Source: Gammaproteobacteria bacterium
Lineage (GTDB): Bacteria > Pseudomonadota > Gammaproteobacteria > Eutrophobiales > Eutrophobiaceae
DNA: 64,000 bases
Reading direction: 5' to 3'
Assembly: GCA_965222155.1 (NCBI GenBank)
Contig: CBDCTH010000012.1
Coordinates: 192,001 to 256,000 of the forward strand
Below the pieces are notes generated by a model. It ran no database searches, was not told the origin of the DNA, and was given only the letters and a program-made list of their open reading frames with translations. A program made the translations under genes and the position numbers. Positions 7,117-57,550 of the stretch are shown here, in pieces (positions within the stretch are counted from its first letter, which is position 1; every line of letters begins with the position of its first letter).

Positions 7117-7280
7117 CAGGTGCTCCCGCTAACTCGAGGTCAATACAGGGCAAGGGTGGACAGATTTAAATCTGTCCCCAAGGGGTCTCCCCAAGGGGGC
7201 ATGTTTCCCTGGAAGGGAGGGCGTCTCGTCCTCCATGAGGGCAGGATGCCCTCGATCCCGGGAGTTAGCGGGAATTGCTG
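7117..7280 (-). mobile_element. MITE family A
   Basis: Ends CAGGTGCTCCCGCTAA / TTAGCGGGAATTGCTG; flanks TACCTGGAA / TACCTGGAG (9-bp TSD, 1 mismatch); homologous to the array spacers. Confidence 0.85.
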
Positions 7281-11762: not shown

Positions 11763-11952
11763 CAGGTGCTTCTGCTAACTCATAAAACCCATTAAAATCA
11801 ATTGGTTATACTGAAAAATATTTCTCGTAAACTTTTCGGTATTTGAGGTGATCTCAAAAGGCTGCGGCAAACTGAAAAACCTGTTATTAATTAATGCAGT
11901 TACAAGCAATTCGCGGTTGACGGCAGACATTGAAAATTAGCGGGAGCACCTG
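11763..11952. mobile_element. MITE with family-A termini but an unrelated AT-rich interior
   Basis: CAGGTGCTTCTGCTAA...TTAGCGGGAGCACCTG; perfect 9-bp TSD AATAAACTG (11754-11762 / 11953-11961). Confidence 0.9.
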
Positions 11953-39487: not shown

Positions 39488-39660
39488 CAGCAGTTCCCGC
39501 TAACTCCCGCGATCGAGGGCATTCTGCCCTCGTGGAGGGCGAGATGCCCTCCCTCCCAGGGAAATATGCCCCTTTATGGTCAGAGGAACTTGGGGGACAG
39601 GGCAAGATCATACTTTTTGTCATAAGCAGGGGGTTTTTATTCCAAAGAGATATATATAAG
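39488..39660. mobile_element. Partial MITE A interrupted by a truncated ISAs1-like MITE C
   Basis: CAGCAGTTCCCGCTAA start; switches at 39598 to CAGGGCAAGATCATACT..., similar to 57073-57364. Confidence 0.75.
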
Positions 39661-40319: not shown

Positions 40320-41105
40320 ATGATTAACACCCTTCAAAGTTACCAGGCAGGACTTCACCTGTTTTATCATCCGTATTCCAACTGTTCGCAGCGCATCCTG
40401 TTGCTGCTGGCGGAAAAGCGTATTGATGCCGAAATGCACGAGGTCAATTTACTGAAGAGCGAACAGTTAACGGAGGACTATTTGCGCATCAATCCCAAGG
40501 CGGAGGTGCCGGCTATTATTCACAACGGCAAGAAGGTTAATGAATCCAGTGAAATTCTGAAATACCTGGAGGCGGAGTTTCCTGAGCCGTCGTTATCACC
40601 GGACGGTGACCAGGCGCTACAACTGATGGAGGCCTGGATAGCCTCTGCCGCGGAGTCCCATTTGAGTGGAGTGGCCAACTATGTTTATTCCCACGGTTAT
40701 GGCCGATTGCCCAGGCCCGAAGACTGGGAGTTCTATCAAAAGCATATTCCCCACCGGGCAAAATTCCATGAAGATCGTCGCAAAGGCCTGATAGGATGTG
40801 ATCCGGCGGCTGCCAGGGCCGTACTGGACGAGCAGTTTTCTAAACTTGAAGTAGCACTGGAGAACAATGACTGGCTGGTTGAGGATAGCTACAGCCTGGC
40901 CGATATTGCCTGGTTTCCCAATGTCGGTGTACTCAGGTTACTGGGTTATTCGGTTGATAAATTTCCCAATGTACAACGATGGGCTGAACGGATAGAAGCC
41001 AGACCCGCTTATCACAATGGTATCGGTAGCAAATTGAAGAACATACCGGGTTGGCTGATAGGGGTTATCGCCAGATTAAATAACAAATTTGGTAACCGGG
41101 GCTGA
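40320..41105 (+). CDS. Glutathione S-transferase family protein
   Basis: SNCSQRILLLLAEK, INPKAEVPAI, YSLADIAW. Confidence 0.9.
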   Translation: MINTLQSYQAGLHLFYHPYSNCSQRILLLLAEKRIDAEMHEVNLLKSEQLTEDYLRINPKAEVPAIIHNGKKVNESSEILKYLEAEFPEPSLSPDGDQALQLMEAWIASAAESHLSGVANYVYSHGYGRLPRPEDWEFYQKHIPHRAKFHEDRRKGLIGCDPAAARAVLDEQFSKLEVALENNDWLVEDSYSLADIAWFPNVGVLRLLGYSVDKFPNVQRWAERIEARPAYHNGIGSKLKNIPGWLIGVIARLNNKFGNRG

Positions 41106-41252
41106 TTGAGATTCGCTGTTTCCTGACTCATCAATCATGACGCTACGATAAAAACAGGTATTACAACAGGCCTGAATACGGTGAACTCCATAAGGATAAA
41201 ATGCTGTTATCTTAAAATACTGGACAGGGCGATAGCTCCGGCATGCTCAGTG

Positions 41253-41975
41253 TCATGATAACAAGCTTTCAATCAACTCGGTTAATTGCGTTGGTTGCGA
41301 CCAAAAAGGCGAGTGCGAGGCCGCTATAGACACTACTCGTTCAAAATCCCAACGCGCATGCATTTCTCGCTGGTGTTCAATACTGATAGCCTCGTCATCC
41401 AGGCATTCAATATAGTACTTGGGCACTTGCCCTAAACCATCCTGAGTATAAGCGGTTCGGGACAGCAATGGCCTTACAGGTTGAGGCTGGATAAATTGCT
41501 CAGCAGCCCTTTGGTCAGCGACTGAACAGTCACTGTAAAAGCGCTTTATTCCCGTGTCTGACCGCACTAACAGTGAAGCGGTAATCAGTGAAAATTTGCA
41601 CAATACGGATAGATCGGTCGCTTTCTCACTTTGGCCTGCGCTATACACACTTGCTACGCCGTATGGCACAACAGCCGTAAGATAGATGAGTTTATCAAAC
41701 AGTTCAGGTCGTTTCTGGGCAGCCGCCGAGACCACAAAACCACCCATGGAGTGCCCCATGGCAACAACAGGTTCTGCAGCCCTTTCCGCAGCAGCAATGA
41801 CATCCCCGGTATAATCATCCATAGTAATTCGAAACGCATTTTTTTTTCGTCCACCGGTTTGCCCCGTCAGGTTGACCACGCTTGCCTGATGCCCCTTTGC
41901 AGTAAGTAAAGGCTGGACCCTGGACCAACAACGTCCATCGTGAAAAGAACCGTGTACCAATACAATGTGCGCCAT
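41253..41975 (-). CDS. Alpha/beta hydrolase (methylesterase-like)
   Basis: VLVHGSFHDGRCW, GHSMGG, ASHSPF. Confidence 0.9.
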   Translation of the reverse strand: MAHIVLVHGSFHDGRCWSRVQPLLTAKGHQASVVNLTGQTGGRKKNAFRITMDDYTGDVIAAAERAAEPVVAMGHSMGGFVVSAAAQKRPELFDKLIYLTAVVPYGVASVYSAGQSEKATDLSVLCKFSLITASLLVRSDTGIKRFYSDCSVADQRAAEQFIQPQPVRPLLSRTAYTQDGLGQVPKYYIECLDDEAISIEHQREMHARWDFERVVSIAASHSPFWSQPTQLTELIESLLS

Positions 41976-42343
41976 AAATTACCCCTGTTGGACGATAAAA
42001 TCCGAACAATACCCACCAATGCCCGAGGTGTTAACTGCAAACGCGTCCTCGATTATATGCCTGTGATTCTGAATCTCTATGACCAATAAGCTGGCAACTA
42101 TTATAGCACGCAAATGCTATAATAGTCGTCAGCTCAGCAGTTCCCGCTAACTCCCGGGCTCGAGGGCATCCTGCCCTCGTGGAGGGCGAGACGCCCTCTC
42201 TCTCAGGGAAATATGCCCCCGCTGTCTTCGAATCCGGCAATAATCAACTGTATTGACCTCGATTTAGCGGGAGCACCTGTCAGTTTGGCAAGTGGTAGAG
42301 TAGAAGTGGCTTGTCAGGGAGACTGTGCTATATTGGCATTGCT

Positions 42344-42550
42344 ATGAACCCGGAAATTCTGACAACTGTAGGGGTCGGTATAGCGATTCTCGCTGCTGTT
42401 TTGCCAGCCATTTTGTACCTGTCCAAGCGCATTGATGAGCAGGGCAAGGAACAAGCGAAGTTCCGTGAAGACATGGCCGGCAGGATGGGCAAGCTGGAAG
42501 GTCTGCTGGAAGGTCTGCGAGAAGCCATCACCGGCAGGCGCGCTGCCTGA
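42344..42550 (+). CDS. Small membrane-anchored coiled-coil protein, copy 1 (68 aa, 0 extra repeats)
   Basis: MNPEILTTVGVGIAILAAVLPAILYL (TM)-SKRIDEQGKEQAK...LEGLLEGLREAITGRRAA. Confidence 0.8.
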   Translation: MNPEILTTVGVGIAILAAVLPAILYLSKRIDEQGKEQAKFREDMAGRMGKLEGLLEGLREAITGRRAA

Positions 42551-42885
42551 CCTGGCCGTGGCATTCCCCACCATACCTTGCCAGGATACGCCGCATCACT
42601 CTGTATATTTGTTCCTGACAGTCGCCGTAACTGGTTCCGGGAGCTGGCAACAGTTCCCGCTAACTCCCGGGCTCGAGGGCATCCTGCCCTCGTGGAGGGC
42701 GAGACGCCCTCCCTCCCAGGGAAATATGCCCCGTGACTCCTGGGGGACAGATTTGAATCTGTCCCCGCTGTCTTCGAATCCGGCAATAATCACTGTATTG
42801 ACCTCGATTTAGCGGGAGCACCTGTCAGTTTGGCAAGTGGTAGAGTAGTGGCTTGTCAGGGAGACTGTGCTATACTGGCATTGCT

Positions 42886-43224
42886 ATGAACCCGGAAATT
42901 CTGACAACTGTAGGGGTCGGTATAGCGATTCTCGCTGCTGTTTTGCCAGCCATTTTGTACCTGTCCAAGCGCATTGATGAGCAGGGCAAGGAGACGAACA
43001 AGCGCATTGATGAGCAGGGCAGGGAGACGAACAAGCGCATTAATGAGCAGGGCAGGGAGACGAACAAGCGCATTGATGAGCAGGGCAAGGAGACGAACAA
43101 GCGCATTGATGAGCAGGGCAAGGAACAAGCGAAGTTCCGTGAAGACATGGCCGGCAGGATGGGCAAGCTGGAAGGTCTGCTGGAAGGTCTGCGAGAAGCC
43201 ATCACCGGCAGGCGCGCTGCCTGA
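42886..43224 (+). CDS. Small membrane-anchored coiled-coil protein, copy 2 (112 aa, 4 extra 11-aa repeats)
   Basis: Same ends; KRI[D/N]EQG[K/R]ETN x4, in frame. Confidence 0.8.
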   Translation: MNPEILTTVGVGIAILAAVLPAILYLSKRIDEQGKETNKRIDEQGRETNKRINEQGRETNKRIDEQGKETNKRIDEQGKEQAKFREDMAGRMGKLEGLLEGLREAITGRRAA

Positions 43225-43562
43225 CCTGGCCGTGGCATTCCCCACCATACCTTGCCAGGATACGCCGCATCACTCTGTATATTTGTTCCTGACAGTCGCC
43301 GTAACTGGTTCCGGGAGCTGGCAACAGTTCCCGCTAACTCCCGGGCTCGAGGGCATCCTGCCCTCGTGGAGGGCGAGACGCCCTCCCTCCCAGGGAAATA
43401 TGCCCCGTGACTCCTGGGGGACAGATTTGAATCTGTCCCCGCTGTCTTCGAATCCGGCAATAATCACTGTATTGACCTCGATTTAGCGGGAGCACCTGTC
43501 AGTTTGGCAAGTGGTAGAGTAGAAGTGGCTTGTCAGGGAGACTGTGCTATACTGGCATTGCT

Positions 43563-43802
43563 ATGAACCCGGAAATTCTGACAACTGTAGGGGTCGGTAT
43601 AGCGATTCTCGCTGCTGTTTTGCCAGCCATTTTGTACCTGTCCAAGCGCATTGATGAGCAGGGCAGGGAGACGAACAAGCGCATTGATGAGCAGGGCAAG
43701 GAACAAGCGAAGTTCCGTGAAGACATGGCCGGCAGGATGGGCAAGCTGGAAGGTCTGCTGGAAGGTCTGCGAGAAGCCATCACCGGCAGGCGCGCTGCCT
43801 GA
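43563..43802 (+). CDS. Small membrane-anchored coiled-coil protein, copy 3 (79 aa, 1 extra repeat)
   Basis: Same ends; one 33-bp repeat. Confidence 0.8.
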   Translation: MNPEILTTVGVGIAILAAVLPAILYLSKRIDEQGRETNKRIDEQGKEQAKFREDMAGRMGKLEGLLEGLREAITGRRAA

Positions 43803-44137
43803 CCTGGCCGTGGCATTCCCCACCATACCTTGCCAGGATACGCCGCATCACTCTGTATATTTGTTCCTGACAGTCGCCGTAACTGGTTCCGGGAGCTGAC
43901 AACAGTTCCCGTTAACCCCCGGGCTCGAGGGCATCCTGCCCTGGTGGAGGGCGAGACGCCCTCCCTCCCAGGGAAATATGCCCCGTGACTCCTGGGGGAC
44001 AGATTTAAATCTGTCCCCGCTGTCTTCGAATCCGGCAATAATCACTGTATTGACCTCGATTTAGCGGGAGCACCTGTCAGTTTGGCAAGTGGTAGAGTAG
44101 TGGCTTGTCAGGGAGACTGTGCTATACTGGCATTGCT

Positions 44138-44509
44138 ATGAACCCGGAAATTCTGACAACTGTAGGGGTCGGTATAGCGATTCTCGCTGCTGTTTTGCCA
44201 GCCATTTTGTACCTGTCCAAGCGCATTGATGAGCAGGGCAGGGAGACGAACAAGCGCATTAATGAGCAGGGCAAGGAGACGAACAAGCGCATTGATGAGC
44301 AGGGCAAGGAGACGAACAAGCGCATTGATGAGCAGGGCAGGGAGACGAACAAGCGCATTAATGAGCAGGGCAAGGAGACGAACAAGCGCATTGATGAGCA
44401 GGGCAAGGAACAAGCGAAGTTCCGTGAAGACATGGCCGGCAGGATGGGCAAGCTGGAAGGTCTGCTGGAAGGTCTGCGAGAAGCCATCACCGGCAGGCGC
44501 GCTGCCTGA
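44138..44509 (+). CDS. Small membrane-anchored coiled-coil protein, copy 4 (123 aa, 5 extra repeats)
   Basis: Same ends; five 33-bp repeats. Confidence 0.8.
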   Translation: MNPEILTTVGVGIAILAAVLPAILYLSKRIDEQGRETNKRINEQGKETNKRIDEQGKETNKRIDEQGRETNKRINEQGKETNKRIDEQGKEQAKFREDMAGRMGKLEGLLEGLREAITGRRAA

Positions 44510-44844
44510 CCTGGCCGTGGCATTCCCCACCATACCTTGCCAGGATACGCCGCATCACTCTGTATATTTGTTCCTGACAGTCGCCGTAACTGGTTCCGGG
44601 AGCTGACAACAGTTCCCGCTCACTCCCGGGCTCGAGGGCATCCTGCCCTGGTGGAGGGCGAGACGCCCTCTCTCTCAGGGAAATATGCCCCGTGACTCCT
44701 GGGGGACAGATTTAAATCTGTCCCCGCTGTCTTCGAATCCGGCAATAATCACTGTATTGACCTCGATTTAGCGGGAGCACCTGTCAGTTTGGCAAGTGGT
44801 AGAGTAGTGGCTTGTCAGGGAGACTGTGCTATACTGGCATTGCT

Positions 44845-45150
44845 ATGAACCCGGAAATTCTGACAACTGTAGGGGTCGGTATAGCGATTCTCGCTGCTGT
44901 TTTGCCAGCCATTTTGTACCTGTCCAAGCGCATTGATGAGCAGGGCAGGGAGACGAACAAGCGCATTGATGAGCAGGGCAAGGAGACGAACAAGCGCATT
45001 AATGAGCAGGGCAGGGAGACGAACAAGCGTATTGATGAGCAGGGCAAGGAACAAGCGAAGTTCCGTGAAGACATGGCCGGCAGGATGGGCAAGCTGGAAG
45101 GTCTGCTGGAAGGTCTGCGAGAAGCCATCACCGGCAGGCGCGCTGCCTGA
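44845..45150 (+). CDS. Small membrane-anchored coiled-coil protein, copy 5 (101 aa, 3 extra repeats)
   Basis: Same ends; three 33-bp repeats. Confidence 0.8.
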   Translation: MNPEILTTVGVGIAILAAVLPAILYLSKRIDEQGRETNKRIDEQGKETNKRINEQGRETNKRIDEQGKEQAKFREDMAGRMGKLEGLLEGLREAITGRRAA

Positions 45151-45447
45151 CCTGGCCGTGGCATTCCCCACCATACCTTGCCAGGATACGCCGCATCACT
45201 CTGTATATTTGTTCCTGACAGTCGCCGTAACTGGTTCCGGGAGCTGACAACAGTTCCCGCTCACTCCCGGGCTCGAGGGCATCCTGCCCTCGTGGAGGGC
45301 GAGACGCCCTCTCTCTCAGGGAAATATGCCCCGTGACTCCTGGGGGACAGATTTAAATCTGTCCCCGCTGTCTTCGAATCCGGCAATAATCACTGTATTG
45401 ACCTCGATTTAGCGGGAGCACCTGTCAGTTTGGCAAGTGGTAGTGGT

Positions 45448-46311
45448 TTATCGAATATCGTTAAATCTGATCAGCCCCTCCTGAGTTACTGTTGCTATCA
45501 TGGTGCCGTCCTGTTGATAAATTGTGCCTCTTGCCAGGCCACGGGAGTTGGAGGTAGACAAGGCTTCACACTCATACAATAACCAGGCGTCGGCATGAAA
45601 GGGGCGATGAAACCACATGGCATGATCGATACTGGCCATGATAAGTTTGTTGTGGAACATATCAATCCCATGGGGGACCAGGGTCGCGGTCAACAACCCG
45701 TAATCCGAGGCATAGGCGAGTATTGCCCGGTGCAGGTCGGGGTCATCCGGTAGTTTATCTATGGTCTTGAACCACAATCGGCGTCCGGGTTTGCTGTTCG
45801 CCGAGAGCTCCCGGTCCAGTGGTTCTACCGGTCTGAGATCAAAAGGAGCTGACAGGGTAATGAGACGTCGAAATTTTTCCGGCAACCGGCCGCCTAAGCG
45901 GGACTTATACTCATGTACACCAGGCAGGGTATCAGGCGCCGGGACATCGGCGCTTTTCAGCTGATATTCGAGTCCTTGTTCGGCTACCTGGAATGATGCC
46001 GACAATGTGAATATGGGACGGCCGTGCTGTGTGGCGACAACACGCCGCGCCGAGAAACTTCTGCCGTCACGACTGCGTTCTACCTCATAGATGATTGGGC
46101 GATCATGATCGCCCTCGCGCAAGAAGTAGGCATGCAAGGAGTGTATTTGCCGGTTTTGGACTGTATATTGTGCTGCTTTCAGGGCCTGGCCCAGCACTTG
46201 TCCGCCATACACCCGGGCGGCGCCGATATCCCGGCTGGACCCGCGGAACAGGTTGTCTTCAAGCCTTTCCAACGTCAATAAACTAATGAGCTCTGCCAGT
46301 ACTGGATTCAT
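45448..46311 (-). CDS. tesB: Acyl-CoA thioesterase II (second copy)
   Basis: VYGGQVLGQAL, RDGRSFSARRV, YASDY, ASIDHAMWFHRPF. Confidence 0.92.
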   Translation of the reverse strand: MNPVLAELISLLTLERLEDNLFRGSSRDIGAARVYGGQVLGQALKAAQYTVQNRQIHSLHAYFLREGDHDRPIIYEVERSRDGRSFSARRVVATQHGRPIFTLSASFQVAEQGLEYQLKSADVPAPDTLPGVHEYKSRLGGRLPEKFRRLITLSAPFDLRPVEPLDRELSANSKPGRRLWFKTIDKLPDDPDLHRAILAYASDYGLLTATLVPHGIDMFHNKLIMASIDHAMWFHRPFHADAWLLYECEALSTSNSRGLARGTIYQQDGTMIATVTQEGLIRFNDIR

Positions 46312-46312
46312 A

Positions 46313-47140
46313 TCAGTTCACCATCACTGAACCACCGCAAACACTGAGAGCTTGCCCGGTGATATAAGAACTCTCATCTGATGCCAGGAATGCCACCGCG
46401 TTTGCAATATCAGAGGGCTTCCCAAGGCGCCCCGCCGGACAGGCAATTCCTAACTTATCAACTAACACCGATACATCAGCCCCCTCACCTATCATCGCGC
46501 TAACGACATCATCCAGACGTTCGTTCTCTATGGCCCCCGGACAAACGCTATTAACCTGGATACCATAAGGCCCCAGCTCGTGGGCCAGACATTGGGTAAA
46601 GCCGACAATACCAAACTTTGATGAACTGTATGCCGCAACGTTGGCAAAGCCTTTTAAACCGCCGCCGGCAGATATATTGATAATTTTTCCACCTTCATTA
46701 CGCTCCTGCAGGTGTCTGGCCACCGCTCTACAACAGATAAAGGTGCCTTTCATATTCACGCGCTGGACAAGGTCAAAAACTTCTTCTTCCAATTCAGTAA
46801 CCGGTACACGGTCACGACCGGCAGGCGCGGCGGCGCAATTAACGAGAATATCAATTTTACCAAATCGCTTAATAACAGCCTTTACAACTTCATCAACCTG
46901 GGCGGCGTTCGTTACATCCATTTCAGCGGCCATTGCCTGGCCACCCTTATCGCTGATGGTTTTTACTACGCTCAACAACCCTTCCCAGCCTTCCTGGCCA
47001 CGGCCACTCATGGTCAGGTCGGTCACAGCAACAGCGGCGCCGTCTTTTGCCAACCGCTGAGCGGTTGCCGCCCCGATACCCTTCTTTGCGGCCGCGCCTG
47101 TGATCAGAGCAACTTTGCCGCTAAGTTTACGCTCAGTCAT
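46313..47140 (-). CDS. SDR family oxidoreductase
   Basis: TGAAAKKGIG, YSSSKFG, ITGQALSVCGG. Confidence 0.92.
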   Translation of the reverse strand: MTERKLSGKVALITGAAAKKGIGAATAQRLAKDGAAVAVTDLTMSGRGQEGWEGLLSVVKTISDKGGQAMAAEMDVTNAAQVDEVVKAVIKRFGKIDILVNCAAAPAGRDRVPVTELEEEVFDLVQRVNMKGTFICCRAVARHLQERNEGGKIINISAGGGLKGFANVAAYSSSKFGIVGFTQCLAHELGPYGIQVNSVCPGAIENERLDDVVSAMIGEGADVSVLVDKLGIACPAGRLGKPSDIANAVAFLASDESSYITGQALSVCGGSVMVN

Positions 47141-57382: not shown

Positions 57383-57550
57383 CAGCAGTTCCCGCTAACG
57401 CCCGGGATCGAGGGCATCCTGCCCGCGTGGAGGGCGAGACGCCCTCCCTCCCAGGGAAACATGCCCCCTTATGGTCAGACTCCCAGGGGACAGATTTAAA
57501 TCTGTCCCCCTTGTCTTAAACTGTATTGACCTTGATTTAGCAGGAGCCGC
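57383..57550 (+). mobile_element. MITE family A
   Basis: CAGCAGTTCCCGCTAA start, both internal hairpin blocks, degenerate right end. Confidence 0.85.

Follow-up and report, generated by a model that had tools for sequence, protein, structure and literature searches.

A tandem array of small-gene units between MITE-derived repeats in a gammaproteobacterial genome: a probable product of repeat-flanked amplification

In a 64,000 nt stretch of a Gammaproteobacteria bacterium genome (GenBank assembly GCA_965222155.1, contig CBDCTH010000012.1, positions 192,001 to 256,000 of the forward strand; here, the window), six copies of a hairpin-rich repeat alternate with five copies of one small gene. The question raised by this locus is whether it is a dedicated genetic system or ordinary amplification between repeats; a preliminary description, which itself inferred growth by recombination, ranked it as the strongest candidate for an undescribed system. 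We find that the array, which spans window positions 42135-45451, adds a case to the known repeat-flanked tandem amplifications and carries a small, uncharacterised membrane protein with a length that depends on the copy. The amplification is probably young and a product of recombination, rather than a dedicated genetic system.

One amplified unit is 0.5–0.7 kb and consists of a miniature inverted-repeat transposable element (MITE), here named MITE-A, a fragment of a second element, MITE-B, an extended −10 element, the small gene and a 97 bp spacer. The components are listed below (window positions, strand, feature); the two forms of the −10 element were read from the sequence.

42135..42279, +, MITE-A copy 1, 145 bp, without the 33 bp hairpin module, starts CAGCAG
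42280..42314, 42825-42856, 43499-43533, 44077-44108 and 44784-44815, +, truncated MITE-B centre to the right of MITE-A
42326-42334, +, extended −10-like TGCTATATT of unit 1, 9 nt before the ATG
42868..42876, 43545-43553, 44120-44128 and 44827-44835, +, extended −10-like TGCTATACT of the other units, 9 nt before the ATG
42344..42550, +, gene copy 1, 68 amino acids, one repeat core
42551..42647, 43225-43321, 43803-43899, 44510-44606 and 45151-45247, +, 97 bp 3′ spacer, absent elsewhere in the genome
42648..42824, +, MITE-A copy 2, 177 bp
42886..43224, +, gene copy 2, 112 amino acids, five repeat cores
43322..43498, +, MITE-A copy 3
43563..43802, +, gene copy 3, 79 amino acids, two repeat cores
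43900..44076, +, MITE-A copy 4
44138..44509, +, gene copy 4, 123 amino acids, six repeat cores
44607..44783, +, MITE-A copy 5
44845..45150, +, gene copy 5, 101 amino acids, four repeat cores
45248..45424, +, MITE-A copy 6
45425..45451, +, last MITE-B fragment, a 19-mer (see below) followed by TGGTTTAT, without the AGTAG insertion; it holds the stop codon of a thioesterase gene on the opposite strand

Repeat finding placed the starts of the element part at 42135, 42648, 43322, 43900, 44607 and 45248, in register, and recovered a 300 nt block of the gene 3′ end and spacer five times with 98–100% identity. The window has 10 occurrences of a 40 nt double-hairpin core, which appeared in none of 100 shuffles, and the inter-gene stretch of the array folds with z = −5.58 relative to shuffles. 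In a 711-column alignment the units differ, outside repeats, at 10 gap-free substitution columns, which by eye fall in the MITE (seven) and in the −10 element, the coding region and the end of the spacer (one each). The alternation of six repeats with five genes had been described correctly, and the spacer of approximately 97 bp assigned to each unit proved exact (42551-42647). However, the repeats are not six elements of 177 bp, as copy 1 is 145 bp. Copy 1 is missing the 33 bp palindromic module, has one additional A and starts with CAGCAG where copies 2–6 start with CAACAG.

MITE-A is a genuine MITE, a non-autonomous transposon with terminal inverted repeats (TIRs). When its 177 bp sequence was used to query the source genome (G000; loci outside the window are given by contig and position), 144 BLAST matches were returned, 69 of them near full length, and alignment of these 69 revealed TIRs, of which one is CAGCAGTTCCCGCTAA and the opposite one TTAGCGGGAGCACCTG. 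Dispersed copies lie between 9 bp target site duplications (TSDs), such as ttacattac, acatggcaa and AATAAACTG. A longer parent is represented by two 1.63 kb elements (C12:1153950-1155577 and C12:1299206-1300839) that have the MITE-A TIRs, 9 bp TSDs and broken transposase frames. Their insertion sequence (IS) family could not be assigned, with no match in Pfam and a best NCBIfam match to IS4 at E = 0.098. In 22 other genomes of the genus, MITE-A gave no match longer than 57 nt and only its hairpin modules recur.

The ends of the MITE/IS family are CAGnnnnTCCCGCTAA, and further members in the window are at 7117-7280, 11763-11952, 39488-39572, 57383-57547 and 59403-59533. The first two had been put forward as dispersed copies with a TSD. 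The TSD of 7117-7280 matches at 8 of 9 bases and that of 11763-11952 is exact (AATAAACTG), but the latter element shares only its TIRs with MITE-A and has a different interior.

The repeat that delimits the units is not one element: it is a composite of approximately 204 bp, made up of MITE-A and the MITE-B fragment. The 19-mer TCAGTTTGGCAAGTGGTAG, with up to three substitutions allowed, matches the genome at 29 places, of which 6 belong to the array. Almost every one of the other 23 is the loop of MITE-B, a perfect hairpin of approximately 88 bp. MITE-B has arms of GATATTTGGGGTCAGAGTAAAAATAC and a predicted folding energy of −47.6 kcal/mol; genome-wide there are 17 near-full-length copies and many partial matches, at times nested with MITE-A. 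In the five units, the MITE-B piece is the 19-mer, then AGTAG or AGTAGAAG, then TGGCTTGT. The last fragment ends at the identical MITE-B position and differs from the unit piece by two substitutions in 8 nt; its TGGTTTAT allele is also found in two dispersed MITE-B copies. Beyond the last MITE-A copy, a further 19 bp of the unit had been reported. Homology is present there and continues for 8 nt more, to 45451, but the sequence is not private to the unit, being the centre of MITE-B.

None of the six MITE-A copies in the array, the outer ones included, is flanked by a 9 bp TSD. The right flank, TCAGTTTGG, is common to all six, while the left flank is TCGTCAGCT at copy 1 and GGGAGCTGG or GGGAGCTGA at the internal copies. 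As the internal copies have no TSD and their flanks are identical, as had been stated for the TSD, independent insertions are excluded. The earlier proposal that the array grew by recombination and not by independent insertion was therefore largely right, and the presence of one more repeat than genes (n + 1) agrees with it. The flanks and the missing TSDs of the outer copies likewise contradict a simple model with two independent insertions.

In the model that we favour, one gene would have been situated between two composites of MITE-A and a MITE-B fragment, and a homologous crossover between sister chromosomes would have produced the first duplication. Whole units would then have undergone unequal crossing-over or gene conversion, which would have brought their number to five and would keep them near-identical, and the same misaligned recombination, acting on in-frame 33 bp repeats, would have left a different repeat number in each gene copy. 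Signs of such a founder are the n + 1 repeats, a left array edge that lies exactly at the MITE-A end, and the likeness of copies 2–5 to copy 6 on the 5′ side. A unique copy 1 and similar copies 2–6 are expected if copy 1 is the left parent and the others are the right parent and hybrids resembling it. With a last MITE-B fragment that has diverged in an otherwise homogenised array, an old flanking copy is a better fit than a severed unit. The presumed parents are identical over only one stretch rightward of the 33 bp module, approximately 78 bp in length. Identity over about 78 bp is sufficient for RecA-type exchange.

Several points weigh against this account. Within the MITE copies, the variant sites form a mosaic that does not fit a single simple crossover, though it fits repeated exchange or conversion. 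With no TSD at either outer MITE copy, the model does not account for the arrival of the two gene-flanking composites. Six full units, from which the last gene was later deleted, would also give n + 1 repeats, and this order of events is disfavoured only by the 8 nt that have diverged. The sequencing runs looked through included no RNA data. Among contigs from four sequencing runs, none bridges the array and all break at every repeat; the joints in these short-read contigs lie within near-identical MITE copies and are unreadable as deletion forms. Finally, the genome bin is 7.28% contaminated and includes duplicated contigs. Contigs C7 and C8 of G000 are near-exact repeats of parts of C10, with the same MITE matches and spacing, and together with the contamination this indicates an assembly with duplicated or strain-variant contigs.

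The breaks at every repeat, the contamination and the duplication of parts of C10 would all be in keeping with an assembly artefact, in which each genome has one unit and strain variants have been concatenated. However, the array is inside a 3.5 Mb contig, and the read depth of the unit exceeds that of both flanks. In run X1, unitigs private to the unit had depths of 942 and 743, compared with 202 and 195 for the flank contigs. The corresponding depths were 669 and 736 against 135 and 151 in run X2, and 52.8 and 46.5 against 10.4 in run X3, which is from a different study. Across the three runs and two studies the ratio is 3.7–5.4, based on unitig depths that are rough and on runs of which the best matching are possibly the source sample itself. 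Concatenated haplotypes would total approximately 1×, whereas ratios of 3.7–5.4 are expected of five copies per genome. An artefact is thus very unlikely. The ratio is a hint of approximately five copies per genome and does not establish their order along one molecule.

MITE-A is also found in a second array, at G000:C12:933.4-941.5 kb, where approximately nine tandem copies of a gene for a protein of 216–231 amino acids are each preceded by MITE-A, whole or as its 3′ half, in the same orientation. The protein combines N-terminal helical repeats with an Hjc/AHJR-like nuclease fold (Pfam Hjc, 22.6 bits against a cut-off of 21.1). Within G000:C12:932500-942500, the region around this array, one of the gene copies is broken by a stop. 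Three full MITE-A copies in this array have one common TSD, CCGTTAAAG, and it follows that the MITE was inserted once and then copied as a passenger.

The array in the window could have the same history. Illegitimate or slipped recombination would have duplicated a unit with one MITE already in it, and amplification would have followed, with the MITE as a pure passenger and the sixth MITE left over from a sixth unit that suffered a deletion. Along with the TSD shared in the second array, this explanation is favoured by clusters of the small gene that have no MITE-A, at C4:423.6-427.3 kb and in the related genome G014, and by the clustering of the Hjc-like family in several genomes of the genus where MITE-A was not found. 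However, the left array edge coincides exactly with the MITE-A end, copy 1 is structurally unlike copies 2–6, and the last right flank departs from the unit within the MITE-B piece in an array that is otherwise homogenised. For the window array we therefore regard the passenger history as rather unlikely and prefer a founder gene between two composites.

The whole genome was swept for tandem loci using Tandem Repeats Finder (period at least 150, score at least 300). This returned 78 rows, most of them within one long open frame. Six loci with at least three copies were not spanned by one frame, and the two MITE-bearing arrays were the only whole-gene arrays identified; the loci inspected were C1:37.6 kb, C4:468 kb and C12:1150 kb, loci with two copies or fewer were left out, and C12:583 kb was judged non-coding solely from its longest open frame of 65 amino acids. 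At G000:C1:37614-38507, three identical 297 bp tandem units have one MITE-B and part of a MITE-A as neighbours, together with several Hjc-like paralogues. It is doubtful that the 87 amino acid frame in each of these units is a gene, as it looks non-coding.

Amplification of a repeat–gene–repeat segment by unequal crossing-over has been described for IS-flanked genes, for example aac(3)-IId between copies of an IS6-family element (PMC12892994). The arrangement resembles the one seen here in that n genes alternate with n + 1 direct repeats and the internal repeats have no TSD, and the process likewise begins with unequal crossing-over between the flanking repeats and continues with whole units (PMC12892994). 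The arrays differ in the repeat, which here is a 177 bp MITE without genes plus a MITE-B piece and there a 0.8 kb IS with a transposase. They also differ in the cargo, which here is a small membrane-protein gene that is under no known selection and has internal in-frame repeat differences. Repeat–gene–repeat tandem amplification is already textbook (PMC12892994), and the array does not qualify as an undescribed system. What had looked like a new system resolves into classical repeat-driven amplification, and a false lead is removed.

Integron arrays are similar to the array in the window in that a structured repeat alternates with single genes, and this alternation would be accounted for by site-specific recombination at the hairpin element, in an integron-like array or another type of cassette array. 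However, the repeat has TIRs, TSDs and a parent IS, and is hence a transposon derivative. All five cassettes hold one gene, and each of them has a −10 element (TGCTATACT), rather than being the promoterless, unrelated cassettes with attC sites of integrons. A search with PF00589 for tyrosine recombinases found matches in the genome at C4:140595, C4:433477, C4:617974 and C12:2409301 and none in the window; the nearest on the contig is the last of these, at 2.41 Mb. The window was thus correctly reported to have no integrase, and a cassette array is scarcely credible.

Two other kinds of rearrangement invite comparison. Shyamala et al. reportedly described, in 1990, chromosomal duplications in enterobacteria that are mediated by repetitive extragenic palindromic (REP) sequences or bacterial interspersed mosaic elements (BIMEs). 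In those duplications, as here, short dispersed palindromic repeats are said to serve as the join points of tandem duplications; they are, however, said to be large and unstable, whereas in the window five 0.6 kb units are fixed in an assembly. Mycoplasma vlp genes and the ‘genomic accordions’ of poxviruses share with the array tandem paralogues, length variation through in-frame repeats and a copy number that can rise and fall. Unlike these, the array product probably faces the cytoplasm, and the array, known here from sequence alone, gives no sign of phase variation, surface exposure or selection.

All five copies of the small gene have an intact frame and an ATG start. The product begins with a hydrophobic segment, MNPEILTTVGVGIAILAAVLPAILYL, followed by SKR; its middle is made up of the 11-residue repeat KRIDEQGKETN, encoded by in-frame 33 bp units; and its tail, FREDMAGRMGKLEGLLEGLREAITGRRAA, is invariant. 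AlphaFold2, run with an alignment of 12 sequences, predicted one continuous helix from residue 3 to residue 78 (mean predicted local distance difference test score, pLDDT, 83). We infer a short N-terminal membrane anchor, placed N-out/C-in by the positive-inside rule. The stalk after the anchor is probably cytoplasmic and would become 11 residues longer or shorter with each repeat gained or lost. At its end is a conserved glycine-spaced helix, MGKLEGLLEGLREAI, and our guess is that the protein might act in helix–helix docking or tethering.

The small protein did not match any named family. Pfam and NCBIfam returned only coiled-coil noise under their cut-offs, matches among PDB sequences had E ≥ 0.13, and PADLOC gave weak matches only. 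PF27974.1, a precomputed label on two homologues, did not come up when these two were matched locally against Pfam. For a stored homologue, the ESM Atlas listed only ‘hypothetical protein’ clusters and, below 0.9, phage-like small coiled-coil families; the window protein itself was absent from it. A cluster look-up returned no names, and a literature search found no paper on the tail motif.

Homologues are nevertheless numerous, with 491 proteins at E ≤ 0.01 and, among 1.84 billion cluster representatives, 721 at E ≤ 1e-3, of which 113 reach E ≤ 1e-10. A relative of the small protein is encoded in 317 genomic stretches, and the record titles are those of metagenome-assembled genomes (MAGs) of Vicinamibacterales, Gammaproteobacteria, Binatia, Alphaproteobacteria, Defluviicoccus and Gemmatimonadetes. 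The relatives are 59–211 amino acids and vary in length through different helix-periodic repeats. Sequence comparison thus indicates a family that is real, widespread and unnamed. No conserved partner was detected among 75 proteins from 77 loci, the same-strand neighbours being unrelated housekeeping and mobile genes. The closest homologues were P0002 and P0008-P0010, the latter on one 3.1 Mb contig. A class-wide search with P0008 found a match in 1 of 400 genomes, G000 itself, and a metagenome scan yielded three weak loci. The family, unnamed and unstudied, comprises single-helix membrane proteins that vary in repeat number; it is found in MAGs of many phyla, is multi-copy in the genus and is of modest interest in its own right.

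Within the genus, the 79 amino acid protein used as a query matched 8 of 18 other genomes, none of which has a close copy of the array. The source genome has about a dozen further family members. One is a solitary paralogue at G000:C12:102.4 kb with a partial MITE-A upstream. Others belong to a second subfamily, with the N-terminus MSMELIALIG... and copies of 87–181 amino acids (G000:C4:417500-429800 and, in the relative, G014:C1:3649500-3664000); its copies vary in how many 11- or 18-residue repeats they have, and some are inverted or broken. The second subfamily forms a loose cluster at C4:423.6-427.3 kb, in which four direct and two inverted copies encode 91–127 amino acids. There is no MITE-A in this cluster, and two of the copies are followed by MITE-B-type hairpins. 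A similar cluster in G014 has copies of 98 and 181 amino acids, again with no MITE-A. Of the 77 retained loci of more distant relatives in other taxa, 66 have a single copy within approximately 10 kb.

The five different repeat numbers, all in open frames and with almost no point differences between the copies, could reflect selection for diversity or dosage at a contingency-type locus. Stalk lengths would be graded, and the repeats would allow fast change in both copy number and length. The length range and different helix-periodic repeats of the relatives, the 98 and 181 amino acid copies in G014, and the same repeat module in the second amplified gene family (see below) speak for such selection. 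However, neutral slippage in a young array also gives variable repeat numbers, the depth ratios are alike in the three runs, and the distant relatives are mostly single-copy. Selection of this kind is an unlikely explanation, and a young amplification by recombination is still the reading we prefer.

Comparison of the repeats in the second array with those of the small protein revealed approximately 75% DNA identity. The Hjc-like and small proteins are related by BLASTP at E = 3e-10 and by hhalign with a probability of 85%, the RMxKLEGL motif included. The Hjc-like family has 30 matches in the source genome, is found in 20 of 23 genomes of the genus and is often clustered. That both of the whole-gene arrays identified carry MITE-A upstream and amplify genes with one shared helical module is also of modest interest. 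Read jointly, the two arrays might be a two-part, copy-number-variable system, perhaps one of genetic conflict, in which a maintained length-ruler set docks Hjc-like proteins. The ruler may be the five membrane-anchored single helices, with stalks that increase in 11-residue steps (approximately 16 Å each, if helical), and docking to the Hjc-like nuclease-fold proteins may be via the shared helical module KETxxRIDxQ ... RMxKLEGL. We consider this joint reading distinctly doubtful.

Each unit had been credited with its own promoter-like region. This holds for an extended −10 at each gene copy, but a consensus two-hexamer scan found no −35/−10 pair upstream of any of them. The element TGCTATACT is predicted to be an extended −10 that yields a leaderless or near-leaderless mRNA. 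An identical element is 6 nt before the ATG of the solitary paralogue at G000:C12:102.4 kb. The TTGACC of the MITE itself was considered as a −35 for the small gene and dropped, as the spacing is wrong.

The position of MITE-A relative to such elements appears to be a property of the MITE. Outside the arrays, −10-like hexamers accumulate 30–49 nt beyond the element ends: of the right ends, 26 of 79 have one, and of the left ends 32 of 89, compared with approximately 5 expected. Among 534 TIR-like ends, a permissively collected set in which some ends may be false, 20 have TGnTAnnnT starting at an offset of 33–40 (approximately 3 expected), 14 of them at 37–38. In the array, 43 or 46 nt separate the MITE-A end from the TG of the −10; by our own count the distance is exactly 38 nt when AGTAG or AGTAGAAG is removed. 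The 38 nt between MITE and −10 are unrelated from locus to locus, and for that reason shared ancestry of the three loci with an upstream MITE was considered and dropped. It seems that the MITE-A family lands, in either orientation, approximately 38 nt upstream of extended −10 promoters throughout the genome. If so, its position in the array is explained without any link to the gene family. The MITE/IS family may choose its target by a fixed distance from the −10, for example via bound RNA polymerase. A literature search found no precedent for promoter-distance targeting by IS elements, which is not proof that none is in print. The sharp preference for approximately 38 nt is a further point of modest interest. 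Should it reflect targeting and not selection, this way of choosing a target would be unusual for a bacterial transposon, and it is directly testable. At the 11952 end of the element at 11763-11952 in the window, the motif TGATATATT starts 35 nt outward.

The array is situated between two genes on the opposite strand.

41253..41975, −, left neighbour, alpha/beta hydrolase gene, outside the array
45448..46311, −, right neighbour, acyl-CoA thioesterase gene, with its stop codon inside the last repeat fragment

Comparison of the left flank with the unit promoter region, and of the right flank with the unit, revealed no more similarity than in shuffles. An Rfam search of 41000-46500 returned a sole, sub-threshold match, resembling a xanthine riboswitch, at 41439-41506 (+; 27.8 bits against a gathering score of 36). 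It lies within the opposite-strand hydrolase gene and is probably due to chance. An empty site was not found, as the thioesterase neighbour in the related genome G002 is not syntenic. At window 45448-45465, sequence derived from the repeat supplies the stop codon of the acyl-CoA thioesterase gene and codes for the end of the protein, the C-terminus of which is …LIRFNDIR, compared with …LIRVKTRVQ in the G002 homologue.

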